Origin: Escherichia coli
GTDB taxonomy: Bacteria > Pseudomonadota > Gammaproteobacteria > Enterobacterales > Enterobacteriaceae
Assembly: GCF_003334255.1 (NCBI RefSeq)
Contig: NZ_QOWU01000002.1
DNA length: 64,000 nucleotides
Direction: 5' to 3' (one strand)
Below the pieces are notes generated by a model, which made no database searches, was not told the DNA's origin, and saw only the letters and a program-made list of their open reading frames with translations. A program made the position numbers and the translations under genes. Below are positions 1 to 46,654 of this stretch, in pieces. The number at the start of each line of letters is the position of its first letter. Position 1 is the stretch's first letter.

Positions 1-78
1 TTGACCGCCTGCGCCTGTGCTCGAAAACGCCAGAATGTACTGGCTGTACGCAATAATTGCAACTGCGATTGTTGTGCT

Positions 79-456: not shown

Positions 457-525
457 ATTGAGTGTTGTCAGCTTACAGAGTGGCTACTTTAGCATAACAA
501 TTATCATTTTCATTGAGGTCTTATC

Positions 526-1053: not shown

Positions 1054-1066
1054 CAATGGAGAGAAT

Positions 1067-1228
1067 ATGTCACTGGAAAATGCCCCTGACGATGTCAAAC
1101 TGGCTGTCGATTTGATTGTGCTGCTGGAGGAAAATCAGATCCCTGCCAGTACCGTGCTGCGCGCGCTGGATATTGTAAAGCGTGATTATGAAAAGAAATT
1201 AACGCGCGATGATGAGGCGGAAAAGTGA
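1067..1228 (+). CDS. ybaM: Small protein YbaM (DUF2496), 53 aa
   Basis: ATG at 1067, TGA at 1226-1228; translated by hand as [53 protein letters not shown]; below the 60-aa cutoff of the ORF track; 13 nt after priC stop. Confidence 0.8.
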
Positions 1229-1281
1229 GAAATAAATGGGGTCGCTAAATGTCCCCTAAGGTTGCGGGCAAACGCAAAACT

Positions 1282-1380
1282 GCCTGATGCGCTACGCTTA
1301 TCAGGCCTACACCGCTCCTGCAATATATTGAATTCTTGCGGTTTCGTAGGCCGGATAAGGCGGTCACGCCGCATCCGGCA
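1282..1380. repeat. BIME-like pair of inverted REP palindromes
   Basis: GCCTGATGCGCTACGCTTATCAGGCCTAC (1282-1310) and GTAGGCCGGATAAGGCGGTCACGCCGCATCCGGCA (1346-1380) in the convergent ybaM/mscK gap. Confidence 0.8.
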
Positions 1381-1439
1381 TGAACAACGCGCACTTTGTT
1401 AGCAATCTCGGGGCAACTAAATGTTGCCCCCTTTCGTTT

Positions 1440-4400
1440 TTACCCTACCGCTGGCGTCGGGTCATCGCCTTTGTAGTCGCGTTTTACTTCCGTCACCTCA
1501 TCGCCCTTCTCGTTGTGCAGATGCACTTCAAGCTGGTTAAAGGCAATGTTGATGTCGTTTTCACGGCACAGCTGATCGATAGTACGGTTCAGCTCATCGA
1601 CAGTACGACTACGGTCACGCAGTTCACGCACATACAGACGCAGCTCATGATCCAACGTGCTGGCACCAAATGCCGTAAAGAAGACTTCCGGCATTGGTTC
1701 GTGCATCACCCTTGGGTGCTCAGTCGCCGCCTTCAGTAACACTTTACGCACTTTTTCCAGATCGGAGCCATAGGCCACGCCGAGACGGATCACCAGACGC
1801 GTAGTAGTGTCAGTCAACGACCAGTTGATCAGACGCTCGGTAACAAACGCTTTGTTCGGGATGATCACTTCTTTGCGATCGAAATCGGTAATCGTTGTCG
1901 CACGAATACGGATCTTACTTACCGTCCCCGAGAAGCTACCAATGGTTACCGTATCGCCAATACGCACCGGACGTTCGAACAGAATGATCAAACCGGAGAC
2001 GAAGTTACCGAAGATCTCCTGTAAGCCAAAACCAAGACCTACGGATAATGCTGCGGCCAGCCACTGGAGTTTATCCCAAGAGACGCCCAGCGATCCGAAC
2101 ACCGTCATCGCACCAACGGCAATAATGATGTAGTTAAGGATGGTAGTAATGGCATACGACGCGCCCTGGCGCATATTCAGTCGCGAGAGCACCAGCACTT
2201 CCAGCAAACCAGGCAGGTTGCGAATCAACGCCCAGGCCACCATTGAGGCGATAATCGCAAACAACAGGCTGCCCATGGTGACGTTTTTCACCACCGCAGC
2301 ACCAGCTTCAGTACCGTTGTAATGCCAGAGCGTAATGCTGTCGAGATAGCTGAACACGGTGATCAAATCGGACCAAATTGCCCAGAACATGACACCGAAC
2401 AGCGCAAACATCAGCAACATGGTAATACGCAGCGTCTGCTGGTTAACCTGTTCCAGTGCAATGGTGGGTTCTTCCGGCGGTTCGGCACCTTCTGCGCCCT
2501 CTTTCACCAGATTCTGCCGACGCGCCAGCGCACGACGCCAGGCGATACGCCGCGCCGCTACGCTTAAGCCACGCAGTACCGTCTGGTACAGCAGGTTCCA
2601 GATGATCACCAGATAAACGGTTTCAATCCAGCGTCCTGCCAGACGCAGCGTAGTGTAGAAGTAGCCTGTAGCAGTCAGCACCATCAGCGCAATCGGGATT
2701 ATCGACAGCACGGTAATGGTGACCAGTCGCATGGTGTGCGACTCTTTATCACGCCAGCTTTCGCGGCACATCGGCCATACCAGGAAGGCAATCAGCAGCA
2801 GGTTGAAGAAAATCATCGCTTGCCCCAGCACATCATCCATCAGATGCAGCGGGGAAAGTTCTGCCACCACAGACCAGAAATGGATAGGCAGCAATGCGAG
2901 ACTGATGCGGACAATTTGCCGACGCCAGTGGCTGGTCTGCTGTTCCGGCATGCCGAAGTGACGTACGGCAACGCCGTTTTTCTCCAGTACCTTCCAGCAC
3001 AGGCCAAACACCAGCCAGAATATCGCCAGTTTTTTGCTGAACGACCATAGCAGTTCGCTGATGTTGAGCTGCATGGTCAACAGAATCAGGCCAACCGCGA
3101 GAATAATCAGGCACACCGGCAGCGCACGGATCAGGTCGATAAGGATCGCTTTTGGTGTGTTGAGCTGGCTGTCGTTACGCAGGGAACCCACAGCGGAAGC
3201 CAGTTTTTGTTGATACGCTTTCAGCCAGCCCAGACGCCAGTGGATCAGCCCGGCAATCAACAGCAGCGGCAAACCAGCGAGGAAAGCGATAAAAACGGCG
3301 GGCCAGGCTTTTTGCCAGTTCACCGTGATTTTCATCGACTTAAATTCATCTTTCAGGCTTTGCGGGAACGCTTTGATCCAGTCCCAGTCCATTGGACGGT
3401 TACTGTTCACCCAAAAGATTTGCTGAGTCAGGATGGATTTCAGGTTTTTCGACACACTCATTAACTGCTGCTGGTTGATTTGCAGGTTAATGGCCATCAT
3501 CAGCTGGTTACCCAACTGTTTGTTGAGTTGATCCAGCAATTCGCGACGCATATCAACCACTTGCAATAACGCATCGTGAACTTCGCTGTTGACTTCGTTG
3601 GTGTGACCTTCTTCCAGTTTGTTGACGAACGCATCGCTCTGGAAGAGTGCATCACGCTGCTGGTTAACTTCAAACTGTTCGAGACGCAAATCCGCGATGC
3701 GGTTGGTCATGTTTTCCAGTTCATCCGCCGAGGGCAGCGTTTGTTGTTGCTGGTAAAGGATACGAGACAACAGCAGGCTGCCCTTCAGGACGGCAATCTG
3801 CTCTTTAATATTGCGTTCCGATTGCAGCGCCCGCTCCAGCCAGTTTTTGACTTTAATGTTTTGCTGCATCAACTGATTACCGTTTTCAGTCGCGGTAATC
3901 AGACGCTGACTTAACTGCTGGTTAATTTCCAGTTCCTGCTTCACCAGCGGATTAGCCTGAATACGCGCGGCTTCATCCGGGGAGACGGCTTCCTGCGCCG
4001 TTTTTTCGGTTAAAGTCAGGCGCTTGCTGTTTACCGCTTCTTGCAACAGTTGTAACTGGTGCTCCAGACGAGCGCTGTTCGCCGTCACGTAATCACGTTG
4101 CTTTTGCAAGGTATCCTGCAAGACGGTGTTCCCTTCCAGGCTTTTACGCTGCTGGTCAATCTCCGCATTCAGCAACGCCTGCTGGGCCTGCATTAACACT
4201 TTCTGGCTGGGACGTAAGGCTGTCTCGCCGACATCAGTCCCATCCAGACGACTGCGAATTTGTTGCAGCTGCTGCGAAGCGTTATACATCGCATTTTGCA
4301 CGCGTTCGGGCTGCGTCTGTAACGAAACCAGCTGGCTGTTATAAGACGCCAGATCGTTTTGTGCGTTTTGCAAATCGTCCAGCGCCTGGGCAACGCGAGT

Positions 4401-4802
4401 TTCCAGCTGGCGCAACGAAAGCGTGCTCAGAATTTTGCGCGTTTCTTCGTCGTTATCGACATCGCTAAGTGCTGTTAACGCCGCGGTCGCCTGGCGCATT
4501 TTTTCCGGCGCTTCAGCGACTTTTTGCCGTAGCTGAACTGTCTCTTCTTTTATGCGATCGATTTTATCGAGGGTGGCTAATGTATCTGTCAGATCCTGCT
4601 GCACCAGTTTGTCCTGAGCAGAAAGATCTTTTTGTTTATTTAGTGAGTCAAGTTGCGCCTGCAGGTCCGCTTTTGTCGGCAGATCACCATTCGATGACGC
4701 CCGCGCAAACGCCGTGTTCTGGCATAACAAGACAAAAACAAAAGCAATAAATGCTGAAAAAACAAAATGCCGTGATCGTTTGTAATACTGGAACATAGTC
4801 AT
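1440..4802 (-). CDS. mscK: Potassium-dependent mechanosensitive channel MscK (KefA)
   Basis: 1120-aa ORF; N-terminal signal sequence, long coiled-coil periplasmic region and C-terminal MscS-like domain; matches MscK. Confidence 0.95.
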   Translation of the reverse strand: MTMFQYYKRSRHFVFSAFIAFVFVLLCQNTAFARASSNGDLPTKADLQAQLDSLNKQKDLSAQDKLVQQDLTDTLATLDKIDRIKEETVQLRQKVAEAPEKMRQATAALTALSDVDNDEETRKILSTLSLRQLETRVAQALDDLQNAQNDLASYNSQLVSLQTQPERVQNAMYNASQQLQQIRSRLDGTDVGETALRPSQKVLMQAQQALLNAEIDQQRKSLEGNTVLQDTLQKQRDYVTANSARLEHQLQLLQEAVNSKRLTLTEKTAQEAVSPDEAARIQANPLVKQELEINQQLSQRLITATENGNQLMQQNIKVKNWLERALQSERNIKEQIAVLKGSLLLSRILYQQQQTLPSADELENMTNRIADLRLEQFEVNQQRDALFQSDAFVNKLEEGHTNEVNSEVHDALLQVVDMRRELLDQLNKQLGNQLMMAINLQINQQQLMSVSKNLKSILTQQIFWVNSNRPMDWDWIKAFPQSLKDEFKSMKITVNWQKAWPAVFIAFLAGLPLLLIAGLIHWRLGWLKAYQQKLASAVGSLRNDSQLNTPKAILIDLIRALPVCLIILAVGLILLTMQLNISELLWSFSKKLAIFWLVFGLCWKVLEKNGVAVRHFGMPEQQTSHWRRQIVRISLALLPIHFWSVVAELSPLHLMDDVLGQAMIFFNLLLIAFLVWPMCRESWRDKESHTMRLVTITVLSIIPIALMVLTATGYFYTTLRLAGRWIETVYLVIIWNLLYQTVLRGLSVAARRIAWRRALARRQNLVKEGAEGAEPPEEPTIALEQVNQQTLRITMLLMFALFGVMFWAIWSDLITVFSYLDSITLWHYNGTEAGAAVVKNVTMGSLLFAIIASMVAWALIRNLPGLLEVLVLSRLNMRQGASYAITTILNYIIIAVGAMTVFGSLGVSWDKLQWLAAALSVGLGFGLQEIFGNFVSGLIILFERPVRIGDTVTIGSFSGTVSKIRIRATTITDFDRKEVIIPNKAFVTERLINWSLTDTTTRLVIRLGVAYGSDLEKVRKVLLKAATEHPRVMHEPMPEVFFTAFGASTLDHELRLYVRELRDRSRTVDELNRTIDQLCRENDINIAFNQLEVHLHNEKGDEVTEVKRDYKGDDPTPAVG

Positions 4803-4929
4803 GATGAATGAAGGTTTCTGAACCTGAAGAACGACCTGAAAAAGTCAAACCGCAAGAATATCACGACGCAGTGAACCAGAATAGCAACGACGAAAATGTC
4901 CAGGAAAAATCCTGGAGTCAGATTCAGGG

Positions 4930-5577
4930 TTATTCGTTAGTGGCAGGATTACGAAGCGTGGGGCACAGGAGATACATCTCCAGTAAGATGGCAACGTAAT
5001 CGCGGGCTTCTTTTTTAAGATCAAAAGATTGCGGGGCAAAGAGCCAGTTTTCCATCAGGCCGGAAATATAGCCGCGCATAATAATTGCTGCGCGACGCGT
5101 CATTAAATCCGCAGGCAACATTTTCGCTTCAATACAATGTTTTAACGTTTGTTCTATACGGTCATAACTTTCCAGACAGAGATTACGTTGTGCCTGTTGC
5201 ACAACAGCCATTTCTCCGACAAATTCGCATTTGTGGAATATAATCTCCATCAATAATCGACGCCGTTCTTCTGTCACCGTGGATTCAAGAACATGAATTA
5301 ATATCTCTCTTAATACTGAGAGTGGATCGCCAGGGAATTTTGCCTGATACTCAAGCTCTAGTTCACCAATATTGGATTCTGACAGTTCCCAGATCTCACT
5401 GAACAAATCCGACTTGTCTTTAAAATGCCAGTAGATTGCACCGCGCGTAACGCCAGCTGCTTTTGCAATCTCGCCCAGCGAGGTGGATGATACCCCCTGC
5501 TGTGAGAAAAGACGTAGAGCCACATCGAGGATGTGTTGGCGCGTTTCTTGCGCTTCTTGTTTGGTTTTTCGTGCCAT
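4930..5577 (-). CDS. acrR: TetR-family repressor AcrR
   Basis: 215-aa ORF; translation matches AcrR; divergent from acrA with 141-bp gap. Confidence 0.95.
5558..5577 (-). promoter_or_regulatory. marbox-like site (MarA/SoxS/Rob) for acrAB activation
   Basis: Minus-strand sequence ATGGCACGAAAAACCAAACA fits the marbox consensus AYnGCACnnWnnRYYAAAYn; overlaps the acrR start codon. Confidence 0.55.
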
Positions 5578-5605
5578 ATGTTCGTGAATTTACAGGCGTT
5601 AGATT

Positions 5606-5629
5606 TACATACATTTGTGAATGTATGTA
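5606..5629. promoter_or_regulatory. AcrR operator, 24-bp perfect palindrome
   Basis: TACATACATTTGTGAATGTATGTA is a perfect inverted repeat in the acrR-acrA gap; candidate -35 TTTACA and -10 TACCAT overlap it. Confidence 0.85.
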
Positions 5630-5718
5630 CCATAGCACGACGATAATATAAACGCAGCAATGGGTTTATTAACTTTTGACCATTGACCAATTTGAAATCG
5701 GACACTCGAGGTTTACAT

Positions 5719-6912
5719 ATGAACAAAAACAGAGGGTTTACGCCTCTGGCGGTCGTTCTGATGCTCTCAGGCAGCTTAGCCCTAACAGGATGTGACGACA
5801 AACAGGCCCAACAAGGTGGCCAGCAGATGCCCGCCGTTGGCGTAGTAACAGTCAAAACTGAACCTCTGCAGATCACAACCGAGCTTCCGGGTCGCACCAG
5901 TGCCTACCGGATCGCAGAAGTTCGTCCTCAAGTTAGCGGGATTATCCTGAAGCGTAATTTCAAAGAAGGTAGCGACATCGAAGCAGGTGTCTCTCTCTAT
6001 CAGATTGATCCTGCGACCTATCAGGCGACATACGACAGTGCGAAAGGTGATCTGGCGAAAGCCCAGGCTGCAGCCAATATCGCGCAATTGACGGTGAATC
6101 GTTATCAGAAACTGCTCGGTACTCAGTACATCAGTAAGCAAGAGTACGATCAGGCTCTGGCTGATGCGCAACAGGCGAATGCTGCGGTAACTGCGGCGAA
6201 AGCTGCCGTTGAAACTGCGCGGATCAATCTGGCTTACACCAAAGTCACCTCTCCGATTAGCGGTCGCATTGGTAAGTCGAACGTGACGGAAGGCGCATTG
6301 GTACAGAACGGTCAGGCGACTGCGCTGGCAACCGTGCAGCAACTTGATCCGATCTACGTTGATGTGACCCAATCCAGCAACGACTTCCTGCGCCTGAAAC
6401 AGGAACTGGCGAATGGCACGCTGAAACAAGAGAACGGCAAAGCCAAAGTGTCACTGATCACCAGTGACGGCATTAAGTTCCCGCAGGACGGTACGCTGGA
6501 ATTCTCTGACGTTACCGTTGATCAGACCACTGGGTCTATCACCCTACGCGCTATCTTCCCGAACCCGGATCACACTCTGCTGCCGGGTATGTTCGTGCGC
6601 GCACGTCTGGAAGAAGGGCTTAATCCAAACGCTATTTTAGTCCCGCAACAGGGCGTAACCCGTACGCCGCGTGGCGATGCCACCGTACTGGTAGTTGGCG
6701 CGGATGACAAAGTGGAAACCCGTCCGATCGTTGCAAGCCAGGCTATTGGCGATAAGTGGCTGGTGACAGAAGGTCTGAAAGCAGGCGATCGCGTAGTAAT
6801 AAGTGGGCTGCAGAAAGTGCGTCCTGGTGTCCAGGTAAAAGCACAAGAAGTTACCGCTGATAATAACCAGCAAGCCGCAAGCGGTGCTCAGCCTGAACAG
6901 TCCAAGTCTTAA
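5719..6912 (+). CDS. acrA: Multidrug efflux periplasmic adaptor AcrA
   Basis: 397-aa protein starting MNKNRGFTPLAV with lipobox LTGC; ORF track extends 12 codons upstream but ATG 5719 follows a GAGG Shine-Dalgarno. Confidence 0.95.
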   Translation: MNKNRGFTPLAVVLMLSGSLALTGCDDKQAQQGGQQMPAVGVVTVKTEPLQITTELPGRTSAYRIAEVRPQVSGIILKRNFKEGSDIEAGVSLYQIDPATYQATYDSAKGDLAKAQAAANIAQLTVNRYQKLLGTQYISKQEYDQALADAQQANAAVTAAKAAVETARINLAYTKVTSPISGRIGKSNVTEGALVQNGQATALATVQQLDPIYVDVTQSSNDFLRLKQELANGTLKQENGKAKVSLITSDGIKFPQDGTLEFSDVTVDQTTGSITLRAIFPNPDHTLLPGMFVRARLEEGLNPNAILVPQQGVTRTPRGDATVLVVGADDKVETRPIVASQAIGDKWLVTEGLKAGDRVVISGLQKVRPGVQVKAQEVTADNNQQAASGAQPEQSKS

Positions 6913-6931
6913 CTTAAACAGGAGCCGTTAA

Positions 6932-10083
<3,152 letters not shown>

Positions 10084-12085: not shown

Positions 12086-12556
12086 ATGACCGAAATACAA
12101 CGCCTGCTGACCGAAACGATTGAGTCTCTGAATACCCGCGAAAAACGCGACAACAAACCCCGCTTTAGTATCAGTTTTATCCGTAAACATCCGGGGCTGT
12201 TTATCGGTATGTACGTTGCTTTTTTTGCCACCCTGGCGGTGATGTTGCAGTCCGAAACGCTGTCAGGCTCTGTCTGGCTACTGGTTGTATTATTTATCCT
12301 GCTTAATGGTTTCTTCTTTTTCGATGTCTACCCACGCTACCGCTATGAAGATATCGACGTGCTGGATTTCCGCGTTTGCTATAACGGCGAATGGTACAAC
12401 ACGCGCTTTGTACCTGCCGCGCTGGTTGAAGCCATCTTGAACTCTCCGCGTGTCGCGGATGTTCATAAGGAACAACTGCAAAAAATGATCGTCCGTAAAG
12501 GTGAACTGTCTTTTTACGATATTTTTACCCTCGCTCGCGCCGAATCAACATCTTAA
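12086..12556 (+). CDS. ylaC: Inner-membrane protein YlaC (DUF1449)
   Basis: 156-aa protein starting [10 protein letters not shown]; ORF track extends 13 codons upstream. Confidence 0.85.
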
Positions 12557-12719
12557 GTTAGGGTTACATACCAGGCGTAAAGCTCTGCGCCTGGTCAAAT
12601 GACAATGATCGTTTCCACCCATCACTTCATGAAATACCAGCTCTACCTCCTTATCTCCAGCCAGCCTTTTTCCACAATCAGATATACTTTCCCTACACTG
12701 TGTTAATAAGGATATGCTG

Positions 12720-14270
12720 GTGAGAACACGACATCTGGTCGGCCTTATTTCGGGAGTACTGATTCTTTCAGTATTGCTGCCTGTCGGCTTAAGCATCTGG
12801 CTGGCCCATCAGCAGGTAGAAACATCGTTTATTGAAGAGCTGGATACCTATTCCTCCCGCGTCGCTATTCGAGCCAATAAGGTGGCGACACAAGGGAAAG
12901 ATGCGCTGCAGGAGCTGGAAAGATGGCAAGGCGCTGCCTGTAGCGAAGCCCATCTCATGGAAATGCGTCGGGTATCTTACAGTTATCGCTATATTCAGGA
13001 AGTGGCTTATATCGATAACAACGTTCCCCAGTGTTCGTCTCTGGAGCATGAAAGTCCGCCCGATACCTTCCCCGAGCCAGGTAAAATTTCGAAAGATGGT
13101 TATCGTGTCTGGTTAACATCGCATAACGATTTAGGCATTATCCGTTACATGGTCGCCATGGGAACGGCACATTATGTCGTCATGATCGACCCCGCTTCCT
13201 TTATTGATGTCATTCCCTATAGCTCATGGCAAATTGATGCCGCCATTATTGGCAATGCCCATAACGTTGTCATAACCAGCAGCGATGAAATTGCTCAGGG
13301 AATTATTACCAGGCTACAAAAAACACCCGGTGAGCATATCGAAAATAATGGAATCATTTACGATATCCTGCCCTTACCGGAGATGAATATTTCGATCATC
13401 ACATGGGCTTCAACGAAAATGTTGCAGAAAGGCTGGCATCGGCAAGTCTTTATTTGGTTACCGCTCGGGTTGGTGATTGGCCTGCTGGCAGCGATGTTTG
13501 TGCTGCGTATTTTGCGCCGTATTCAGTCACCGCATCATCGGCTGCAGGATGCTATCGAAAATCGTGATATTTGCGTGCACTATCAGCCGATTGTCTCCTT
13601 AGCCAATGGCAAAATTGTCGGTGCTGAGGCACTGGCGCGCTGGCCGCAGACAGACGGTAGTTGGTTGTCACCAGATAGTTTTATTCCGCTGGCACAGCAA
13701 ACGGGCCTTTCTGAGCCATTGACGCTACTGATTATAAGAAGCGTCTTTGAAGATATGGGCGACTGGCTGCGTCAGCATCCACAGCAGCATATTTCGATCA
13801 ATCTTGAATCCCCCGTGCTCACCTCGGAAAAAATCCCGCAATTGCTGCGTGACATGATCAATCACTATCAGGTTAATCCCAGACAGATCGCGCTTGAACT
13901 CACTGAACGCGAGTTTGCCGATCCGAAAACCAGCGCCCCGATAATTTCTCGCTACCGGGAGGCGGGCCATGAAATTTATCTTGATGATTTTGGTACGGGG
14001 TATTCAAGTTTAAGTTATTTACAGGATCTGGATGTCGACATTCTGAAGATCGATAAATCTTTCGTTGATGCGCTGGAATATAAAAATGTCACGCCGCATA
14101 TCATCGAAATGGCAAAAACACTGAAACTGAAAATGGTAGCGGAGGGAATCGAAACCAGTAAACAAGAAGAGTGGTTACGCCAGCATGGCGTGCACTACGG
14201 TCAGGGCTGGCTCTACAGCAAGGCATTACCGAAAGAAGATTTCTTACGCTGGGCCGAGCAACATTTGTGA
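12720..14270 (+). CDS. pdeB: c-di-GMP phosphodiesterase PdeB (YlaB), CSS-motif sensor with EAL domain
   Basis: Two N-terminal TM segments, periplasmic region and C-terminal EAL domain; GTG 12720 gives the 516-aa form, alternative ATG at 12714. Confidence 0.88.
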   Translation: MRTRHLVGLISGVLILSVLLPVGLSIWLAHQQVETSFIEELDTYSSRVAIRANKVATQGKDALQELERWQGAACSEAHLMEMRRVSYSYRYIQEVAYIDNNVPQCSSLEHESPPDTFPEPGKISKDGYRVWLTSHNDLGIIRYMVAMGTAHYVVMIDPASFIDVIPYSSWQIDAAIIGNAHNVVITSSDEIAQGIITRLQKTPGEHIENNGIIYDILPLPEMNISIITWASTKMLQKGWHRQVFIWLPLGLVIGLLAAMFVLRILRRIQSPHHRLQDAIENRDICVHYQPIVSLANGKIVGAEALARWPQTDGSWLSPDSFIPLAQQTGLSEPLTLLIIRSVFEDMGDWLRQHPQQHISINLESPVLTSEKIPQLLRDMINHYQVNPRQIALELTEREFADPKTSAPIISRYREAGHEIYLDDFGTGYSSLSYLQDLDVDILKIDKSFVDALEYKNVTPHIIEMAKTLKLKMVAEGIETSKQEEWLRQHGVHYGQGWLYSKALPKEDFLRWAEQHL

Positions 14271-30094: not shown

Positions 30095-32449
30095 CTATTT
30101 TGCAGTCACAACCTGCATACCAGACGGTTCATTTTGCAGCGCCAGAGTCAGAACTTCCTCAATGCGCTTCACAGGATGAATGTCCAGATCGGCAATTACG
30201 TTGTCAGGAATCTCTTCCAGATCGCGTTTATTTTCGAACGGAATTAGCACTGTTTTAATCCCGCCGCGATGCGCTGCCAGGAGTTTTTCTTTCAAACCAC
30301 CGATCGGCAGTACCTGACCACGCAGAGTGATCTCACCGGTCATTGCCACATCGGCACGAACCGGGTTACCGGTCAGGCAAGAAACCAGCGCGGTGCACAT
30401 AGCAATACCGGCACTCGGACCATCTTTCGGCGTCGCACCTTCCGGTACGTGGACGTGGATGTCACGTTTTTCGTAAAAATCAGGGTTGATCCCCAGTTTT
30501 TCCGCACGCGCACGAACCACCGTTAACGCCGCCTGAATGGACTCCTGCATCACTTCGCCGAGCGAACCGGTATAGGTCAGTTTGCCTTTACCCGGAACAC
30601 ATGCGGTTTCAATGGTCAGCAAGTCACCGCCCACTTCCGTCCACGCCAGACCGGTTACCTGACCGACACGGTTTTCGTTATCCGCGCGACCATAGTCGAA
30701 ACGCTGAACACCGAGATAGTCATGCAGGTTATCGCCGTTAATTTCGATATGTTTTAATGACTTATCGAGCAGTAACTGCTTAACCGCTTTGCGACACAGT
30801 TTGGAGATTTCACGCTCCAGACCACGCACGCCCGCCTCACGGGTGTAGTAACGAATAATGCCGATAATGGCGCTATCGTCGACGGTCAGCTCACCTTTTT
30901 TCAGTGCATTACGTTCAATCTGCTTCGGCAGCAGGTGACGTTTGGCGATGTTCAGTTTTTCATCTTCGGTATAACCGGAGAGGCGAATCACTTCCATACG
31001 ATCCAGCAGCGGTGCCGGAATGTTCATGGAGTTCGACGTCGCGACAAACATCACGTCGCTGAGATCGTAATCCACTTCCAGGTAGTGGTCGCTGAACGCT
31101 ACGTTCTGCTCTGGATCCAGCACTTCAAGCAGTGCAGAGGCCGGATCGCCACGCATGTCAGAAGACATTTTGTCGATCTCATCGAGCAGGAACAGCGGGT
31201 TTTTCACGCCCACTTTCGCCATTTTCTGGATCAGTTTACCCGGCATAGAACCGATGTAAGTACGGCGGTGACCACGGATTTCCGCTTCATCACGCACGCC
31301 GCCCAGCGCCATACGGACATATTTACGCCCGGTGGCTTTGGCAATGGACTGACCAAGAGAGGTTTTACCTACCCCCGGCGGCCCTACCAGGCAGAGGATC
31401 GGTCCCTTGATTTTGTTGACACGGCTTTGAACCGCAAGATACTCAAGGATTCGATCTTTCACGCGCTCCAGACCATAATGGTCGGTATCAAGGATTTCCT
31501 GCGCCTGACGCAGGTCTTTTTTGACCTTGCTACGCGCATTCCACGGCACCTGTACCATCCAGTCGATATAACCACGCACTACGGTCGCTTCTGCCGACAT
31601 CGGAGACATCATTTTCAGCTTCTGCAACTCTGCTTCCGCTTTCTCTTTTGCCTCTTTCGGCATCTTCGCCGCGTCGATTTTGCGCTTCAGGGCTTCGTTT
31701 TCGTCCGGCGCGTCGTCCATTTCACCGAGTTCTTTCTGAATAGCTTTCATTTGCTCGTTCAGATAGTACTCACGCTGGGATTTCTCCATCTGCTTTTTAA
31801 CGCGGTTGCGAATGCGTTTCTCAACCTGCAGCAGATCGATTTCCGATTCCATCATTGCCATCAGATATTCCAGACGTTCGTTAACGTCGGACATCTCCAG
31901 AACAGACTGTTTGTCAGCCAGTTTCAGCGGCATATGTGCAGCAATGGTATCCGCCAGACGCGCCGGATCGTCGATGCTATTCAGCGACGTCAGCACTTCT
32001 GGTGGGATTTTTTTGTTCAGCTTGATGTAGCCTTCGAACTGGCTGATTGCAGTACGCACCAGCACTTCCTGTTCCCGCTCATCAATGGTCGGCGACTCCA
32101 GATACTCCGCCTTCGCAGAAAAGTGTTCGCCATTGTCAGAGAGCGCAGAAATACGCGCGCGCTGTAACCCCTCGACCAGCACTTTGACGGTGCCGTCAGG
32201 CAGTTTCAGCATCTGCAATATAGAGGCCACGGTCCCGACGGTGAAAAGATCGTTTACACCCGGCTCATCCGTTGAAGCTTCTTTCTGCGCGACCAGCATA
32301 ATTTTTTTATCATGGTCCATCGCCGCTTCCAGACAACGGATAGATTTTTCCCGCCCGACAAATAAGGGGATGACCATGTGCGGATAAACCACCACATCGC
32401 GCAGCGGCAATACGGGGATTTCAATGCGTTCAGAACGCTCAGGATTCAT
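30095..32449 (-). CDS. lon: ATP-dependent protease Lon
   Basis: 784-aa protein starting [18 protein letters not shown]; Walker A GPPGVGKT; catalytic Ser in PKDGPSAG; ORF track extends 15 codons upstream. Confidence 0.96.
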
Positions 32450-32532
32450 AGAGCTCTCTCTTAGTTTAATTTCCGCCAGGTAATCAGATGACACGACTGT
32501 GCTTCACGCCATCTATTAACATGTACGTCAGT

Positions 32533-32559
32533 ATATGGGGATGTTTCCCCCACATTCAA
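32533..32559 (-). promoter_or_regulatory. Sigma-32 heat-shock promoter of lon
   Basis: Minus strand TTGAAT (-35) - 13 nt - CCCCATAT (-10), fitting the sigma-32 consensus; about 85 nt upstream of the lon ATG. Confidence 0.75.
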
Positions 32560-32582
32560 CGCCGAGAATAGAGGAAAAATTA

Positions 32583-32612
32583 AAGGGGAGATAAAATCCC
32601 CCCTTTTTGGTT
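32583..32612 (-). terminator. Intrinsic terminator downstream of clpX
   Basis: Minus strand GGGGGGATTTTATCTCCCC hairpin followed by TTTAATTTTT, between the clpX stop and the lon promoter. Confidence 0.65.
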
Positions 32613-32636
32613 AACTAATTGTATGGGAATGGTTAA

Positions 32637-33911
32637 TTATTCACCAGATGCCTGTTGCGCTTCCGGCTTGCCATAAATCAGCAACGGTTTGCTTTGACCA
32701 TCAATTACCGACTCGTCGATAACCACTTTTTCGACGTCTTCCATGGACGGCAGATCGTACATGGTATCGAGCAGTGCGGCTTCTACGATGGAACGCAGGC
32801 CACGGGCACCGGTTTTACGCGCCATCGCTTTCTTAGCGATAGCATCCAGCGCCTCGTCACGGAATTCCAGATCCACGCCTTCCAGATTAAACAGCGCCTG
32901 ATACTGCTTGGTCAGGGCGTTTTTCGGCTCTTTGAGGATCTGAATCAGAGCTTCTTCGCTCAGTTCATTCAACGTTGCGACAACCGGCAGACGACCAATA
33001 AACTCAGGGATAAGACCAAACTTGATCAGATCTTCCGGTTCAACCTGCGCCAGCAGCTCGCCTTCGCTTGCTTTGTCGGACTTCGCTTTTACCGTCGCGC
33101 CAAAACCAATGCCGGAGCCGGTTTCTACACGGTGGGAAATCACTTTATCCAGACCGGCAAACGCACCGCCACAAATAAACAGGATCTTAGAGGTATCAAC
33201 CTGCAAGAATTCCTGCTGCGGATGTTTACGCCCACCTTGCGGTGGAACAGCAGCTACCGTACCTTCGATCAGTTTCAACAGTGCCTGCTGTACGCCTTCA
33301 CCGGAAACGTCTCGGGTAATGGACGGGTTGTCTGACTTACGAGAAATCTTGTCGATTTCATCGATGTAGACAATACCACGCTGTGCTTTCTGGACATCGT
33401 AGTCGCATTTCTGCAACAGCTTCTGAATGATGTTTTCAACGTCTTCACCCACATAACCGGCTTCGGTCAGTGTAGTCGCGTCGGCCATGGTGAACGGAAC
33501 ATCCAGCAGGCGCGCCAGCGTTTCAGCCAGCAGCGTTTTACCGGAACCGGTCGGACCGATCAGCAGAATGTTACTTTTGCCCAACTCGACGCCATTGCTG
33601 GTATCGCCGTTGCGCAGACGTTTGTAATGGTTGTATACCGCGACCGCCAGCACTTTTTTCGCCTGTTCCTGGCCGATAACGTAATCGTCCAGGTGGTTGC
33701 GAATTTCATGCGGCGTCGGTAGCGCACTGCGTTCACGATGCGGTGCAACTTCTTTAATCTCTTCGCGAATGATGTCGTTACATAAATCAACACATTCGTC
33801 GCAGATATACACGGATGGACCGGCAATCAGCTTGCGCACTTCATGCTGGCTTTTGCCGCAAAAAGAGCAATACAGCAATTTGCCTGAGCCATCTTTGCGT
33901 TTATCTGTCAT
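32637..33911 (-). CDS. clpX: ATP-dependent Clp protease ATPase subunit ClpX
   Basis: 424-aa ORF; N-terminal zinc-binding CxxC...CxxC; Walker A GPTGSGKT. Confidence 0.97.
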
Positions 33912-34905: not shown

Positions 34906-36213
<1,308 letters not shown>

Positions 36214-36460
36214 TCAAAAAATCACAGTGCTCGGTCAACTCTTACCCCGCAAGCACAGGTTGTTGGCTTCGCGGAACCGGGATGTTCTTATAATCAATCA
36301 CATTCCCTGTTACCAGAATCATCCCGAAAGCATTCAAATAGGACGCGGCATTATAGCGGCATCACTTTTATGAGTCGAGAACGGTTATTGCGCGCTGTCG
36401 CGTATTTTTTCACAATTCCCGGGCAATTTTCGTCTGAATGCTGGGCAAAAAGCGCAAAAT

Positions 36461-36495
36461 CCAGACAAAACAAAACGGCCCGCAGGCCGTTTTTC
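36461..36495 (-). terminator. Intrinsic terminator downstream of bolA
   Basis: Hairpin ACGGCCCGCAGGCCGT with a T-rich tract on the minus strand, about 55 nt after the bolA stop. Confidence 0.65.
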
Positions 36496-36547
36496 ATAAA
36501 AACTTTAGCAACATACTGGAAAAGCGCCGACAGTTGCAAATGCGTTT

Positions 36548-36865
36548 TTACGCGATGCTTCCTGCTCCACGACAGGGAGGAGAGGCAAAGACGGTGTCCT
36601 GCAACCCTTCCCACTCCTTAATAGTGTAAGTATGCAGAGCCAGCGCATGAACGGTAGTAGAGAGTTCCTCCGCTAAAGTACTGTAAATCATTCGATGACG
36701 ATTCAGAAAACGTTCACCCGTAAAACGATCGCTGACCAGCACAACTTTAAAATGGCTTTCAGAGCCGGCTGGGACATTGTGACGATAGCTTTCATCCACT
36801 ACTTCGAGGAATACGGGTTGGAACGCCGCCCTTAATTTTTCTTCTATCCGCTCACGTATCATCAT
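36548..36865 (-). CDS. bolA: Stress/morphogene regulator BolA
   Basis: 105-aa protein starting [15 protein letters not shown]; ORF track extends 11 codons upstream. Confidence 0.9.
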
Positions 36866-37169
36866 GAAATATCTCCTCCGACAACGCTGAGATGTCATCC
36901 ATCCCTTTAAATACTAGCCGCTTTTACCGTTTCCATTGCAGCTTAACAACAAATATTTAGGTTTCGTCCTGGTTTTTCCGTCAAGCGTATGAAGTTTACT
37001 GATTTAAAGATTGAAACACAGGCCTCGCATCAGTGTTTCTTTTACCAGGGGCGATTATTTCGTCAACATGATGAATTTACATGCCTTACCCACTTCCCCT
37101 CGCCGTTGGCAATGTTATGATGGCGGGAATTTTTACCAAACACGCTTAAGAGTCTCTGAGAGCCCGAAC

Positions 37170-37748
37170 ATGTTCAAAAAAATCCTCTTCCCGTTAGTTG
37201 CTCTGTTTATGCTTGCAGGATGCGCAAAACCGCCAACAACTATTGAAGTTTCCCCGACGATTACACTGCCACAGCAGGATCCAAGCCTGATGGGCGTCAC
37301 CGTAAGCATTAATGGTGCCGATCAGCGTACCGATCAGGCGCTGGCAAAAGTCACCCGCGATAATCAAATCGTTACCCTGACCGCCTCCCGCGATCTGCGT
37401 TTCCTGCTGCAAGAAGTGCTGGAAAAACAGATGACCGCGCGTGGTTACATGGTTGGTCCGAATGGCCCGGTTAATCTGCAAATCATCGTTAGCCAACTGT
37501 ATGCTGACGTGTCCCAGGGCAACGTGCGCTACAACATCGCGACCAAAGCGGATATCGCCATCATCGCTACCGCGCAGAATGGCAACAAAATGACCAAAAA
37601 CTATCGTGCCAGCTACAACGTTGAAGGTGCGTTCCAGGCCTCCAACAAAAATATCGCCGATGCGGTTAACAGTGTGCTGACCGATACCATCGCTGATATG
37701 TCTCAGGACACCAGCATCCACGAATTCATCAAGCAGAACGCGCGTTAA
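37170..37748 (+). CDS. yajG: Lipoprotein YajG
   Basis: 192-aa protein starting MFKKILFPLVALFMLAGC (lipobox); ORF track extends 53 codons upstream. Confidence 0.88.
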   Translation: MFKKILFPLVALFMLAGCAKPPTTIEVSPTITLPQQDPSLMGVTVSINGADQRTDQALAKVTRDNQIVTLTASRDLRFLLQEVLEKQMTARGYMVGPNGPVNLQIIVSQLYADVSQGNVRYNIATKADIAIIATAQNGNKMTKNYRASYNVEGAFQASNKNIADAVNSVLTDTIADMSQDTSIHEFIKQNAR

Positions 37749-37791
37749 TTTCTGCCCTCTGGCCCGGTGCAAGCCGGGCCTGTAGACGCCC

Positions 37792-39267
37792 ATGTCCAGT
37801 CAATATTTACGTATTTTTCAACAGCCGCGTTCAGCCATATTGCTGATCCTGGGTTTTGCTTCCGGGCTACCGCTCGCCCTGACATCCGGTACCTTACAGG
37901 CCTGGATGACGGTCGAGAATATTGATCTCAAAACCATTGGTTTCTTCTCTCTGGTAGGCCAGGCTTACGTTTTTAAATTCCTCTGGTCACCGCTGATGGA
38001 CCGCTACACGCCTCCATTTTTTGGGCGGCGACGCGGTTGGCTGCTCGCCACGCAAATCCTGTTATTAGTCGCCATTGCGGCGATGGGTTTTCTCGAACCA
38101 GGCACCCAACTCCGCTGGATGGCGGCGCTGGCGGTGGTGATCGCTTTTTGCTCTGCCTCCCAGGATATTGTCTTCGATGCGTGGAAAACCGATGTGCTCC
38201 CGGCAGAAGAACGTGGTGCGGGCGCGGCAATCAGCGTTCTGGGTTACCGTTTAGGGATGCTGGTTTCCGGCGGCCTAGCCCTGTGGCTGGCAGATAAATG
38301 GCTGGGCTGGCAGGGCATGTACTGGTTGATGGCGGCGCTGTTGATCCCCTGTATTATCGCGACGTTGCTTGCACCAGAACCGACCGACACCATTCCTGTG
38401 CCAAAAACGCTGGAACAAGCGGTTGTTGCACCTCTGCGAGATTTCTTTGGTCGCAATAATGCCTGGCTTATTTTGCTTCTTATCGTGCTGTATAAGCTGG
38501 GCGACGCATTCGCCATGAGCCTGACAACCACGTTTTTGATTCGCGGCGTCGGGTTTGATGCGGGTGAAGTAGGCGTGGTTAACAAAACGCTTGGCTTACT
38601 AGCGACCATTGTTGGCGCATTGTACGGTGGGATTTTGATGCAGCGCCTGTCACTGTTCCGGGCACTGCTGATTTTCGGCATTTTACAAGGTGCGTCTAAC
38701 GCCGGTTACTGGCTGCTGTCGATTACTGATAAGCATCTCTACAGCATGGGCGCAGCCGTCTTTTTCGAAAACCTCTGTGGCGGGATGGGCACATCAGCCT
38801 TTGTCGCGCTGTTAATGACGCTATGTAATAAGTCATTTTCCGCTACTCAATTTGCCCTGCTCTCAGCGCTTTCTGCTGTAGGGCGAGTTTATGTCGGCCC
38901 CGTGGCGGGTTGGTTTGTTGAAGCACACGGCTGGTCGACATTCTATCTATTCTCCGTCGCCGCTGCCGTACCAGGGCTTATTTTGCTGCTGGTTTGCCGC
39001 CAGACGCTTGAATATACACGAGTAAATGACAACTTTATCTCCCGTACCGCATATCCGGCAGGTTATGCCTTTGCCATGTGGACACTGGCGGCGGGCGTCA
39101 GCCTGTTGGCCGTGTGGTTACTGCTATTGACGATGGACGCGCTGGATTTGACGCACTTCTCTTTCCTGCCTGCTCTGCTGGAAGTCGGGGTTTTAGTCGC
39201 CCTTTCTGGCGTCGTGCTTGGTGGTTTGCTGGATTATCTGGCGCTACGAAAAACGCATCTGACGTAA
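37792..39267 (+). CDS. ampG: Muropeptide permease AmpG (MFS)
   Basis: 491-aa ORF; polytopic membrane protein matching AmpG. Confidence 0.93.
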   Translation: MSSQYLRIFQQPRSAILLILGFASGLPLALTSGTLQAWMTVENIDLKTIGFFSLVGQAYVFKFLWSPLMDRYTPPFFGRRRGWLLATQILLLVAIAAMGFLEPGTQLRWMAALAVVIAFCSASQDIVFDAWKTDVLPAEERGAGAAISVLGYRLGMLVSGGLALWLADKWLGWQGMYWLMAALLIPCIIATLLAPEPTDTIPVPKTLEQAVVAPLRDFFGRNNAWLILLLIVLYKLGDAFAMSLTTTFLIRGVGFDAGEVGVVNKTLGLLATIVGALYGGILMQRLSLFRALLIFGILQGASNAGYWLLSITDKHLYSMGAAVFFENLCGGMGTSAFVALLMTLCNKSFSATQFALLSALSAVGRVYVGPVAGWFVEAHGWSTFYLFSVAAAVPGLILLLVCRQTLEYTRVNDNFISRTAYPAGYAFAMWTLAAGVSLLAVWLLLLTMDALDLTHFSFLPALLEVGVLVALSGVVLGGLLDYLALRKTHLT

Positions 39268-39723
39268 TCTGTAAATATTATTTAGCTGTAGTAATCACTC
39301 GCCGTAATTATTACGGCTAAATAAACATCAGTATCGCTTATTAATATTTGTTCTTTTGTGCGGCTTAGCGTTTGGAAATTATTGGCGCCATTTATAAATT
39401 CTATTTTTCTTACACGATTCAGCTAATGAGTCTTTATTTTCTCATCACCCAGTTGTCACTCTAATGATAATTATTTGTTAAATAATTGTTTTATTTCACA
39501 TTGGTTATACCAATTGCCCGCCCAGACTCCTTCAGCACTCCCCTTTTGTTATAACGCCCTTTTGCAACAGCTTCTTAAAATCAACCTGATATGTTTTGCA
39601 ACATATGTGACCTGGCAGCCAAATCCAAGTAACAGGAATTTAATCATGTTTACAGTAATGTAACCTTCCCGTAAAATGCCCACACACTTTAAACGCCACC
39701 AGATCCCGTGGAATTGAGGTCGT

Positions 39724-40674
<951 letters not shown>

Positions 40675-40683
40675 AGGGGTTGA

Positions 40684-43620
<2,937 letters not shown>

Positions 43621-43631
43621 GAGCGGCGGTT

Positions 43632-44522
43632 ATGATGTTTAAGCAATACCTGCAAGTAACGAAACCAGGCATCATCTTTGGCAACCTGATCTCGGTGATT
43701 GGGGGATTCCTGCTGGCCTCAAAGGGCAGCATTGATTATCCCTTGTTTATCTACACGCTGGTTGGGGTGTCACTGGTTGTGGCGTCGGGTTGTGTGTTTA
43801 ACAACTACATCGACAGGGATATCGACAGAAAGATGGAAAGGACGAAGAATCGGGTGCTGGTTAAAGGCCTGATCTCTCCTGCTGTCTCGCTGGTGTACGC
43901 CACCTTGCTGGGTATTGCTGGCTTTATGCTGCTGTGGTTTGGCGCGAATCCGCTGGCCTGCTGGCTGGGGGTGATGGGCTTTGTGGTTTATGTCGGCGTC
44001 TATAGCCTGTACATGAAACGCCACTCAGTCTACGGCACATTGATTGGTTCGCTCTCCGGCGCTGCGCCGCCGGTGATTGGCTACTGTGCAGTAACCGGCG
44101 AGTTCGATAGCGGCGCAGCGATCCTGCTGGCTATCTTCAGCCTGTGGCAGATGCCTCACTCCTATGCCATCGCCATTTTCCGCTTTAAGGATTACCAGGC
44201 GGCAAACATTCCGGTATTGCCAGTGGTAAAAGGCATTTCGGTGGCGAAGAATCACATCACGCTGTATATCATCGCCTTTGCCGTTGCCACGCTGATGCTC
44301 TCTCTTGGCGGTTACGCTGGATATAAATATCTGGTGGTCGCCGCGGCGGTTAGCGTCTGGTGGTTAGGTATGGCTCTGCGCGGTTATAAAGTTGCTGATG
44401 ACAGAATCTGGGCGCGCAAGCTGTTCGGCTTCTCTATCATCGCCATCACTGCCCTCTCGGTGATGATGTCCGTTGATTTTATGGTACCGGACTCGCATAC
44501 GCTGCTGGCTGCTGTGTGGTAA
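43632..44522 (+). CDS. cyoE: Protohaem IX farnesyltransferase (haem O synthase)
   Basis: 296-aa protein starting [18 protein letters not shown]; ORF track extends 15 codons upstream. Confidence 0.93.
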
Positions 44523-44537
44523 CAAAACCTCTCAGTT

Positions 44538-44563
44538 AAAAAGGTGCTACGGCACCTTTTTTC
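44538..44563 (+). terminator. Intrinsic terminator of the cyoABCDE operon
   Basis: AAAAAGGTGCTACGGCACCTTTTTT: GC hairpin plus T6, about 20 nt after the cyoE stop. Confidence 0.8.
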
Positions 44564-44670
44564 TTAGCATTAGAAACATATCCCTCTCGAAATATTTACT
44601 AAAAAATCCGCATGTTTACCCCATTCGTTTGCCGCTTTACACTAGTCGCGAATTTAAAACAGAGGTGGTA

Positions 44671-46035
44671 ATGAACGATTATAAAATGACGCCAGGTGAG
44701 CGGCGCGCGACCTGGGGTTTAGGAACCGTTTTCTCGTTGCGCATGCTGGGCATGTTTATGGTTCTGCCGGTTCTGACCACGTATGGCATGGCTCTGCAAG
44801 GTGCCAGCGAAGCATTAATCGGTATTGCCATTGGTATTTATGGTCTGACTCAGGCCGTTTTTCAGATTCCGTTTGGCCTGCTTTCCGACCGCATTGGTCG
44901 CAAACCATTAATTGTCGGTGGGCTGGCGGTGTTTGCCGCCGGTAGCGTTATCGCTGCGCTTTCTGACTCCATCTGGGGAATTATTCTGGGCCGGGCGCTA
45001 CAAGGCTCCGGTGCGATTGCCGCTGCCGTTATGGCGCTGCTTTCCGATCTCACGCGCGAACAAAACCGCACCAAAGCAATGGCGTTTATCGGCGTGAGCT
45101 TTGGCATTACCTTTGCCATTGCGATGGTGCTTGGCCCGATCATCACTCACAAACTTGGGCTGCACGCGCTGTTCTGGATGATCGCTATTCTGGCAACGAC
45201 CGGCATTGCGTTGACCATTTGGGTTGTGCCCAACAGTAGCACTCACGTACTTAATCGTGAGTCCGGAATGGTGAAAGGCAGTTTCAGTAAAGTGCTGGCG
45301 GAACCGCGGCTGCTGAAACTCAACTTTGGCATTATGTGTCTGCATATTTTGCTGATGTCGACGTTTGTTGCCCTGCCCGGACAACTGGCTGATGCAGGGT
45401 TCCCGGCGGCTGAACACTGGAAGGTCTATCTGGCGACAATGCTAATCGCCTTTGGCTCGGTCGTGCCTTTCATTATCTACGCTGAAGTTAAGCGCAAAAT
45501 GAAGCAAGTCTTTGTCTTCTGCGTCGGGTTGATCGTGGTTGCGGAAATTGTGTTGTGGAACGCGCAAACGCAGTTCTGGCAACTGGTGGTCGGCGTGCAG
45601 CTTTTCTTTGTGGCGTTTAATTTGATGGAAGCCCTCCTGCCCTCACTTATCAGTAAAGAGTCGCCAGCAGGTTACAAAGGTACGGCGATGGGTGTTTACT
45701 CCACCAGCCAGTTTCTTGGCGTGGCGATTGGCGGTTCGCTGGGCGGCTGGATTGACGGCATGTTTGACGGTCAGGGGGTATTTCTCGCTGGCGCAATGCT
45801 GGCCGCAGTGTGGCTGACAGTCGCCAGTACCATGAAAGAACCGCCGTATGTCAGCAGTTTGCGCATTGAAATCCCGGCGAACATTGCCGCAAACGAGGCG
45901 TTAAAAGTGCGTTTGCTAGAAACTGAAGGCATCAAAGAAGTGTTGATTGCAGAAGAAGAACATTCAGCTTATGTGAAAATCGACAGCAAAGTGACGAATC
46001 GCTTTGAGATAGAACAGGCAATTCGTCAGGCATAA
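44671..46035 (+). CDS. yajR: MFS transporter YajR
   Basis: 454-aa protein starting MNDYKMTPGERRATWGLG; ORF track extends 66 codons upstream. Confidence 0.9.
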   Translation: MNDYKMTPGERRATWGLGTVFSLRMLGMFMVLPVLTTYGMALQGASEALIGIAIGIYGLTQAVFQIPFGLLSDRIGRKPLIVGGLAVFAAGSVIAALSDSIWGIILGRALQGSGAIAAAVMALLSDLTREQNRTKAMAFIGVSFGITFAIAMVLGPIITHKLGLHALFWMIAILATTGIALTIWVVPNSSTHVLNRESGMVKGSFSKVLAEPRLLKLNFGIMCLHILLMSTFVALPGQLADAGFPAAEHWKVYLATMLIAFGSVVPFIIYAEVKRKMKQVFVFCVGLIVVAEIVLWNAQTQFWQLVVGVQLFFVAFNLMEALLPSLISKESPAGYKGTAMGVYSTSQFLGVAIGGSLGGWIDGMFDGQGVFLAGAMLAAVWLTVASTMKEPPYVSSLRIEIPANIAANEALKVRLLETEGIKEVLIAEEEHSAYVKIDSKVTNRFEIEQAIRQA

Positions 46036-46050
46036 AAAACGCGGCGAATT

Positions 46051-46137
46051 GCCTGCTGCGCTACGCTTATCAGGCCTACAAAGTTTCTGAATTACAAACC
46101 TTTGTAGGCCGAATCAGGCGTTCATGCCGCATCTGAC
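46051..46137. repeat. BIME-like pair of REP palindromes between convergent yajR and yajQ
   Basis: GCCTGCTGCGCTACGCTTATCAGGCCTAC and GTAGGCCGAATCAGGCGTTCATGCCGCATCTGAC. Confidence 0.8.
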
Positions 46138-46162
46138 ATGAACAAAACGCACATAGTCGCGA

Positions 46163-46654
46163 TTAATCGCGGAAGTTTTTGAACTGGAACGGCTGACCGA
46201 GATCGCCACCACGTACCATCGCCATGACAGCCTGCAAATCATCACGAGATTTGCCCGTTACGCGGATTTCATCGCCCTGAATTTGCGCCTGCACTTTCAG
46301 TTTGCTGTCTTTGATCATCTTGACGATTTTCTTCTGGGTCGCGCTCTCAATGCCCTGTTTCAGTTTCGCTTCCACAAACCAGGTTTTACCGCTATGAACG
46401 ATATTTTCCGGTACATCCAGTGAACTGCCTTCAATGCCGCGCTTCAGCAGCTTGGCACGCAAAATATCCAGCAACTGATTGACCTGGAAATCGGACTCGC
46501 TCAACACTTTGATGGTTTTGCTGGCGTCATTCAGCTCAAATGAGGCTTCAACGTTACGGAAGTCAAAACGGGACTCCACTTCGCGGCTCGCGTTATCGAC
46601 CGCGTTACGTGCTTCCTGAAGATCAACTTCAGAGACAATATCGAAAGATGGCAT
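46163..46654 (-). CDS. yajQ: Nucleotide-binding protein YajQ (UPF0234)
   Basis: 163-aa protein starting [17 protein letters not shown]; ORF track extends 56 codons upstream. Confidence 0.9.

Follow-up and report, generated by a model that had tools for sequence, protein, structure and literature searches.

The interval between clpX and lon in the Escherichia coli DNA analysed here (a stretch of 64,000 nt, hereafter the window) is very probably the wild-type control region of lon, in which a Rho-independent terminator is followed by a single compact lon promoter that is served by two sigma factors and holds an empty target for the insertion sequence IS186. The heat-shock promoter of lon, the IS186 hot spot and the promoter lesion of B strains have stood in the textbooks for decades. 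The interval is an ordinary, already known example of the E. coli lon control region, and it adds no new biology. What the analysis offers instead is a set of useful corrections, namely that the intact state of the promoter is almost uninformative on lineage, that the promoter belongs to sigma-70 as well as to sigma-32, and that an antisense small RNA (sRNA) placed in the same interval is thinly supported.

The gap between the two genes, read on the minus strand, spans exactly 32450-32636 (187 bp), since the clpX ORF runs to 32637 when its stop codon is counted and the ATG of lon lies at 32449-32447; the size given in an earlier note on this DNA, made from the letters alone, is thereby confirmed. 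The upstream gene, clpX (32637-33911, minus strand; 424 aa), was taken from the list of ORFs, encodes a protein equal to K-12 ClpX, and is annotated as clpX in the matching genomes. The downstream gene, lon (30095-32449, minus strand; 784 aa), is intact; relative to K-12, its coding sequence shows 0 nt differences and the protein is identical. A longer, GTG-initiated lon ORF (30095-32494) was set aside as a mechanical extension; the ATG at 32449 is the start annotated in all matching genomes. Alignment with the K-12 lon promoter, proposed as a check in the earlier note, was run and returned 187 of 187 bp identical to MG1655 (NC_000913.3 458701-458887), without rearrangement. Thus, relative to the lon heat-shock promoter of K-12, the entire interval, the flanking genes, and both the Lon and ClpX proteins are the same, whereas the surrounding 64 kb differs by 123 SNPs. 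Additionally, 5425 of the 5426 complete E. coli genomes contain a match to the 501 bp that surround the gap, and the neighbours there are annotated as clpX and lon.

The core of the lon promoter consists of TTGAAT (32559-32554), a 13-nt spacer GTGGGGGAAACAT (32553-32541), and CCCCATAT (32540-32533), all on the minus strand. The -35 element TTGAAT is conserved at a level of at least 98 % among 105 sequences and is usable by sigma-70 as well as by sigma-32, for which the consensus is CTTGAA; read as GTTGAA(T) at 32560-32555, it agrees with that consensus at five of six positions. The sigma-32 -10 element, CCCCATATA (32532-32540, minus strand), starts 14 nt after TTGAA, i.e. at the consensus spacing, conforms to CCCCATnT(a), and does not vary in any of the 119 other species. 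Overlapping it is a -10 element of the sigma-70 type, TATACT (32530-32535, minus strand), which is separated from TTGAAT by an 18-nt spacer and which the promoter scan returned with 9 of 12 matches. The sigma-32 consensus is quoted in PMC10216364, in which dnaK P1, the reference sigma-32 promoter and the one in the sigma-32 open-complex structure, reads CTTGAA-14 nt-CCCCATTTA. The lon and dnaK P1 promoters have TTGAA and CCCCAT at the same 14-nt spacing, and their -10 elements agree at eight of nine positions; however, the base 5' of TTGAA is G in lon and C in dnaK P1, and lon, unlike dnaK P1, carries the overlapping TATACT and is bound by RpoD too.

A search of the 64 kb for the strict pattern TTGAA-N12-16-CCCCAT gave a single match where 0.17 would be expected, and at least one match arose in 14 of 100 shuffles, so that the motif count in the window alone is not significant. 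The chance count was dropped as sole evidence for a promoter, and a phylogenetic footprint was used in its place; the reality of the promoter rests on its position, its conservation across species, and published data on transcription start sites (TSSs) and chromatin immunoprecipitation (ChIP). Based on its sequence, its footprint and RpoH ChIP-chip in K-12, the sigma-32-type promoter that the earlier note had read as TTGAAT-13 nt-CCCCATAT is borne out.

For the footprint, lon loci were gathered from one genome per species by means of a degenerate pattern for the first 15 codons of lon, and because this pattern is anchored on lon codons, the selection of loci is independent of the promoter. The search yielded 120 loci across the Enterobacterales, in most of which the clpX-lon gap measures 176-195 bp. 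A perfect TTGAA-14 nt-CCCCAT, constant in spacing, lies within 260 bp of the ATG in 118 of the 119 species other than that of the window for which the upstream sequence was long enough. The exception, Enterobacter sp. R1(2018) (locus L031), was considered as a species without the motif, its best match within 260 bp being 9/11; this was ruled out by a motif at -301, ahead of a leader insertion of approximately 190 bp, so that the promoter motif is kept in 119 of 119 other species once this one is included. The combination of [G/A]TTGAAT and CCCCATATA is invariant from Escherichia to Yersinia, Providencia, Xenorhabdus, Pantoea and Edwardsiella, whereas the 13-nt spacer takes 53 forms in the 105 distinct sequences. 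In the column profile of these 105 sequences, TTGAAT and TCCCCATATA are at least 98 % conserved and the CT that follows at least 90 %, and immediately 3' of the -10 element and its CT conservation falls sharply. Two fixed boxes at a fixed spacing, with a spacer that is free to vary, imply that the promoter is under selection, and on this comparison the lon promoter is functionally constrained.

Evidence on the holoenzymes that use the promoter comes from the starts of transcription and from occupancy in K-12. The primary mapping of the lon heat-shock promoter is reportedly due to Gayda 1985, Chin 1988 and Nonaka 2006, and Goff 1984 and Phillips 1984 are also said to count among the classical mapping papers. 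More recently published starts from K-12 can be transferred to the window by way of the identical sequence, and they fall on two adenines, 32522 and 32524 (minus strand), at the right distance from the -10 elements. One survey (Kim 2012; PMC3415461, supplement) gives the primary lon TSS as 458039, with a 73-nt 5'UTR, which corresponds to the A at window position 32522, and the same work reports the equivalent A as the lon TSS of Klebsiella pneumoniae, with a 71-nt UTR. Another (Cho 2014; PMC3923258, Table S6) places a TSS, supported by 1744 reads, at 458037, which corresponds to the A at 32524. For that start, the same table lists both sigma binding and binding plus motif as 'DH', i.e. RpoD and RpoH, by ChIP-chip in K-12; hence, sigma-32 occupies the promoter in vivo in K-12, with RpoD as co-occupant. 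In keeping with this, Lon is numbered among the RpoH-dependent heat-shock proteins (PMC5493296; PMC3486835). Since RpoD and RpoH both bind in K-12 on an identical sequence, and as the overlapping TATACT is conserved, the lon promoter is a dual one that serves sigma-70 as well as sigma-32 and does not belong purely to sigma-32.

The start at 32524 falls 7 nt after the sigma-32 -10 element, and the start at 32522 falls 9 nt after that element and 7 nt after TATACT. A distance of 9 nt is long for sigma-32, and so the 32522 start is better matched to the sigma-70-type TATACT. The two starts may reasonably be taken to reflect the two holoenzymes, possibly with sigma-32 initiating at 32524 and sigma-70 at 32522. 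The same observations could be pressed further, to the view that the promoter of lon works in essence with sigma-70 (TTGAAT-18 nt-TATACT), that CCCCAT is incidental and that sigma-32 plays no real role. The 9/12 match in the scan would suit that view, as would the Kim 2012 start at 32522, located an ideal 7 nt from TATACT, the binding of RpoD at the lon promoter in K-12, and the fact that the strict sigma-32 pattern is statistically unsurprising in 64 kb. However, the four C residues at 32540-32537 lie outside of the sigma-70 hexamer and yet are invariant in 119 of 119 other species, the lon TSS is credited with an RpoH ChIP signal as well as an RpoH motif, and Lon is an established RpoH-dependent heat-shock protein; moreover, an 18-nt spacer coupled with a -35 element matching at 4/6 positions would by itself make a weak sigma-70 promoter. 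A promoter for sigma-70 only is, consequently, highly improbable, and the dual promoter is retained as the basis for what follows.

Downstream of the starts, the 5'UTR of lon (32450-32521, minus strand) begins with a part that is variable and continues, according to the profile over the 105 sequences, into near-invariant blocks. These blocks are CTGGCGGAAAT (32479-32469) and AAGAGAGAGCTCT (32462-32450), the latter including GAGAGAG (32460-32454), which resembles a Shine-Dalgarno sequence. When extended through the ATG, the second block, AAGAGAGAGCTCTATG (32462-32447), is almost invariant over the 105 Enterobacterales sequences, whereas the rest of the leader varies. The conservation of CTGGCGGAAAT and AAGAGAGAGCTCTATG suggests a translational or regulatory element that may go beyond a plain Shine-Dalgarno sequence. 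A sigma-E-like combination, GGAAATT...TCTAT, was considered as the cause of the leader block and was rejected upon inspection, as its start would fall inside the lon coding sequence. Several loci (L031, L051, L081, L116 and L124) carry leader insertions of approximately 120-190 bp between the promoter and the block preceding the ATG; in these species, the promoter motif sits at -238 to -301, and in L031 the region of the insertion extends from about -270 to -60 relative to the ATG.

Upstream of the promoter lies the other element of the interval, the intrinsic terminator of clpX (32572-32606, minus strand), which was identified by terminator scan, folding and comparison. It is made up of a stem-loop, AAAGGGGGGAT-ttt-ATCTCCCCTTT (32606-32582), and a T-tract, AATTTTTCCT (32581-32572). 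The scan describes the stem as 11 pairs, five of them G-C, closed by a 3-nt loop, and the hairpin folds at -15.5 kcal/mol (z -1.89). In the RNA, the U-tract TTTAATTTTT comes directly after the stem-loop, giving the combination of a G+C-rich stem and a U-tract. Among the 105 Enterobacterales sequences, the median stem is 12 bp long, at least five T residues occur in the 8 nt after the stem in 79, and the two arms of the stem vary in a compensatory manner, as in GGGGGGAT/ATCTCCCC and TGGGGGAT/ATCCCCCA, as well as in GGGGAAA/TTTCCCC and TGAGGGA/TCCCTCA. From the terminator scan, the fold and the stem variants together, the clpX terminator hairpin that had been noticed earlier in the gap is confirmed at 32606-32572.

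The direction in which this hairpin operates can be judged from one pair of the stem, which is G.U in the sense of clpX and becomes an A.C mismatch on the plus strand, where the scan sees a stem of only five pairs. On this ground, the element is best read as the terminator of clpX, at which transcripts would be predicted from the sequence to end. A bidirectional terminator that also serves the sRNA gene sraA was considered but is poorly supported, as a 5' A-tract (at least five of eight) is found in only 14 of the 105 sequences and as G.U pairs favour the clpX direction. Termination need not be complete. Cho 2014 (PMC3923258) assigned to the lon unit two weak TSSs located inside clpX, at K-12 positions 457701 and 457517 (166 and 82 reads), from which some read-through of the clpX terminator would follow. 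In the window, these weak starts correspond to about 32860 and 33044 (minus strand).

On the opposite strand, the same sequence matches, over its full length, the Rfam family sraA (RF02029; psrA3/t15) at 32521-32616 (plus strand), thereby overlapping both the lon promoter and the clpX terminator. This match, which is known here from the sequence model, went unmentioned in the earlier note. The covariance-model score is 106.7 bits, above the gathering score of 56, and the model also matches in 12 of 15 diverse species. The other Rfam matches in the interval, DapZ (21 bits) and the L20 leader (19 bits), are far below the gathering score and were dismissed as chance. In the literature, SraA figures in a review among the sRNAs, placed between clpX and lon (PMC3384567), and the design of a lon deletion took care to spare sraA (PMC11251521). 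Based on the strength and breadth of the Rfam match as well as these two reports, it might be argued that the conservation of the interval comes from a functional antisense sRNA, in place of or in addition to the lon promoter, and that transcription of SraA modulates lon or clpX. However, both of the sraA helices mirror elements of the minus strand. Helix 1 corresponds, in reverse complement, to the lon -10 element pairing with the spacer and the -35 element, and helix 2 is the clpX terminator; these elements can, therefore, explain the conservation of sraA. Where helix 1 touches the variable spacer, its five informative pairs are paired in 77.5 % of cases in register, vs 74 % at a shift of -2 and 64 % at a shift of -1, and no independent support from covariation was found.

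The evidence for expression of sraA points in the same direction. The stretch in which a promoter for it would be expected (32480-32520) is poorly conserved in the 105-sequence profile, and the promoter scan found no promoter for sraA on the plus strand. No TSS for sraA appears by any of the five methods compiled in Kim 2012 (PMC3415461), and the current RefSeq annotation of MG1655 has no sraA in this region, although it includes other non-coding RNAs, e.g. ffs. Furthermore, the hairpin is weaker in the plus direction because of the A.C mismatch. Support for sraA that is independent of the promoter and the terminator is thin, and since those two elements adequately explain the conservation, a functional SraA as its cause is considered unlikely. 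The terminator and the dual promoter of lon are thus kept as the elements that account for the interval.

Situated within the promoter spacer is GGGGGAAACATCCCC (32537-32551), an unoccupied IS186 target. It contains the GGGG-N-CCCC signature of the hot spot, it coincides with the junctions in BL21(DE3), strain B-1109 and pEcFELIX533.1, and the insertions in 56 records fall exactly there. The core that is duplicated upon insertion in BL21 and B-1109 is GGGAAACATCC (32549-32539). The earlier note had found no transposase or IS-like ends in the gap, and for IS186 the absence extends well beyond it, in that no IS186 terminal inverted repeat, with up to three mismatches allowed, is located anywhere in the 64-kb window. 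The accompanying claim, that IS186 disrupts this promoter in B strains, was verified directly in BL21(DE3). There, the gap is 1537 bp and consists of the 187 bp plus a 1339-bp IS186 and an 11-bp duplication, with the element placed between ...TTGAATGTGGGGGAAACATCC and GGGAAACATCCCCATAT..., so that the -35 and -10 elements of lon are 1.35 kb apart. The lon::IS186 allele of E. coli B, BL21 and REL606 has the same flanks as the window on both sides of the insertion point; the difference is that B strains have the 1339-bp IS186 and the 11-bp duplication of GGGAAACATCC between the -35 and -10 elements, whereas the window has the empty, 187-bp site. The insertion is the accepted cause of the Lon deficiency of B strains, according to saiSree 2001 as cited in PMC7377907 and PMC11251521.

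Occupied alleles are also encountered outside of the B lineage. The lone shortened match to the 501-bp query led to a junction with an IS4-like (IS186/IS421) transposase adjoining lon, and that junction was used as a query for IS186-lon alleles among the complete E. coli genomes. It retrieved IS186 at lon in one orientation in seven genomes, and 49 further records, which match from the terminal inverted repeat on, represent the opposite orientation; these records agree with the 55 genomes in which no uninterrupted gap is present. Included in the set are two derivatives of MG1655 as well as strains that bear the names JM109 and HB101 (H31, H37, H68, H78), and hence some widely used 'K-12' laboratory stocks may be promoter-level lon mutants. 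Clinical and environmental carriers include FAHZZU7007, H32, NDM6, DX6, XH2172 and B-1109. IS186 has landed independently in B strains, in K-12 derivatives and in unrelated clinical isolates, amounting to about 1 % of complete genomes. Spontaneous insertion at lon in K-12 derivatives, in either orientation, has been described previously (PMC3045373; PMC11251521). The clinical isolate B-1109 (L005; NZ_CP117971.1) has IS186 at 12550-13888, in the position and orientation seen in BL21, yet it differs from the window by only three mismatches and one gap opening over 25 kb. Thus, the state of the insertion site can differ between near-identical backgrounds. A further occurrence is in pEcFELIX533.1 (L002; NZ_CP137697.1), a 128.8-kb sequence deposited as a plasmid, which reads ybdK-hokE-IS186-lon-hupB-ppiD at 2489-6456. 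It looks like the junction of a circle or duplication between the IS186 adjacent to hokE and an IS186 in the lon promoter, and could be either a genuine segment that was excised or amplified or else an artefact of assembly.

The spacer of the window also has a run of five G residues (32547-32551), and a G-run of at least four, which makes the GGGG-N-CCCC target complete within a promoter that is otherwise deeply conserved, is present in only the window and Escherichia albertii among the sampled species. Salmonella, Citrobacter, Enterobacter and relatives read GTGTGGGAAACATCCCC at that location, and close relatives read GTGTGGG. One may speculate that the intact site is an Escherichia-specific 'armed' mutational switch, and, in connection with this, that the sraA family for the most part merely mirrors the conserved promoter and terminator and is no independent gene; this combined reading is entertained as a possibility, but a rather doubtful one.

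Taken together, the elements suggest the following working of the region. Transcripts of clpPX would end at the Rho-independent terminator formed by the hairpin (32606-32582) and its U-tract, and lon would be transcribed from one compact promoter in which the -35 element TTGAAT is common to the two overlapping -10 elements. The sigma-70 holoenzyme would provide the basal level of Lon, and in this strain the sigma-32 holoenzyme would presumably raise that level after heat shock or protein misfolding. Initiation at the A at 32524 or the A at 32522 would give a leader of 73-75 nt, the last part of which is the highly conserved Shine-Dalgarno block that precedes the ATG (32449). With the IS186 target GGGGGAAACATCCCC unoccupied, the -35 and -10 elements would remain in register and Lon would be made normally. 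From the intact promoter and an ORF identical to that of K-12, the strain may be inferred to be Lon-proficient. Lon would then be expected at its normal level, which bears on protein stability, the regulation of capsule, the turnover of SulA, and MarA-dependent drug tolerance. The strain would also keep, in its empty hot spot, a route to Lon-deficient and often more drug-tolerant variants.

In the earlier note, the intact promoter had been called consistent with a K-12-like background. This is literally true, as the gap and lon are those of MG1655, and it is nearly uninformative, as 5370 of the 5426 complete genomes, which cover all lineages of E. coli, have an uninterrupted gap (about 99 %) and insertions occur in K-12 derivatives. 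The stronger proposition, that an intact promoter is a diagnostic marker of a K-12-lineage strain, could appeal to the identity of the gap and the lon coding sequence with MG1655 as well as to the collinearity of the whole window with K-12 427,337-491,337 (in reverse orientation), which are 99.81 % identical over 64 kb, with 123 mismatches and one gap. However, besides the presence of the intact state in all lineages and the ability of K-12 derivatives to bear the IS186 insertion, the 123 differences from K-12 MG1655 are clustered, with 99 SNPs in 36-52 kb (36001-52000), 21 in 1-8 kb (1-8000), and zero in 24-36 kb and 52-64 kb. Moreover, the best matches over 25 kb come from wild isolates of human and environmental origin, and K-12 is not among them. 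As a diagnostic of K-12, the intact promoter is already refuted, with scarcely any probability left to it. The clustering of SNPs is the pattern expected of recombination patches in a K-12-like backbone and, as judged from these comparisons, the source of the window is a close relative of K-12 with such patches, rather than K-12 itself.
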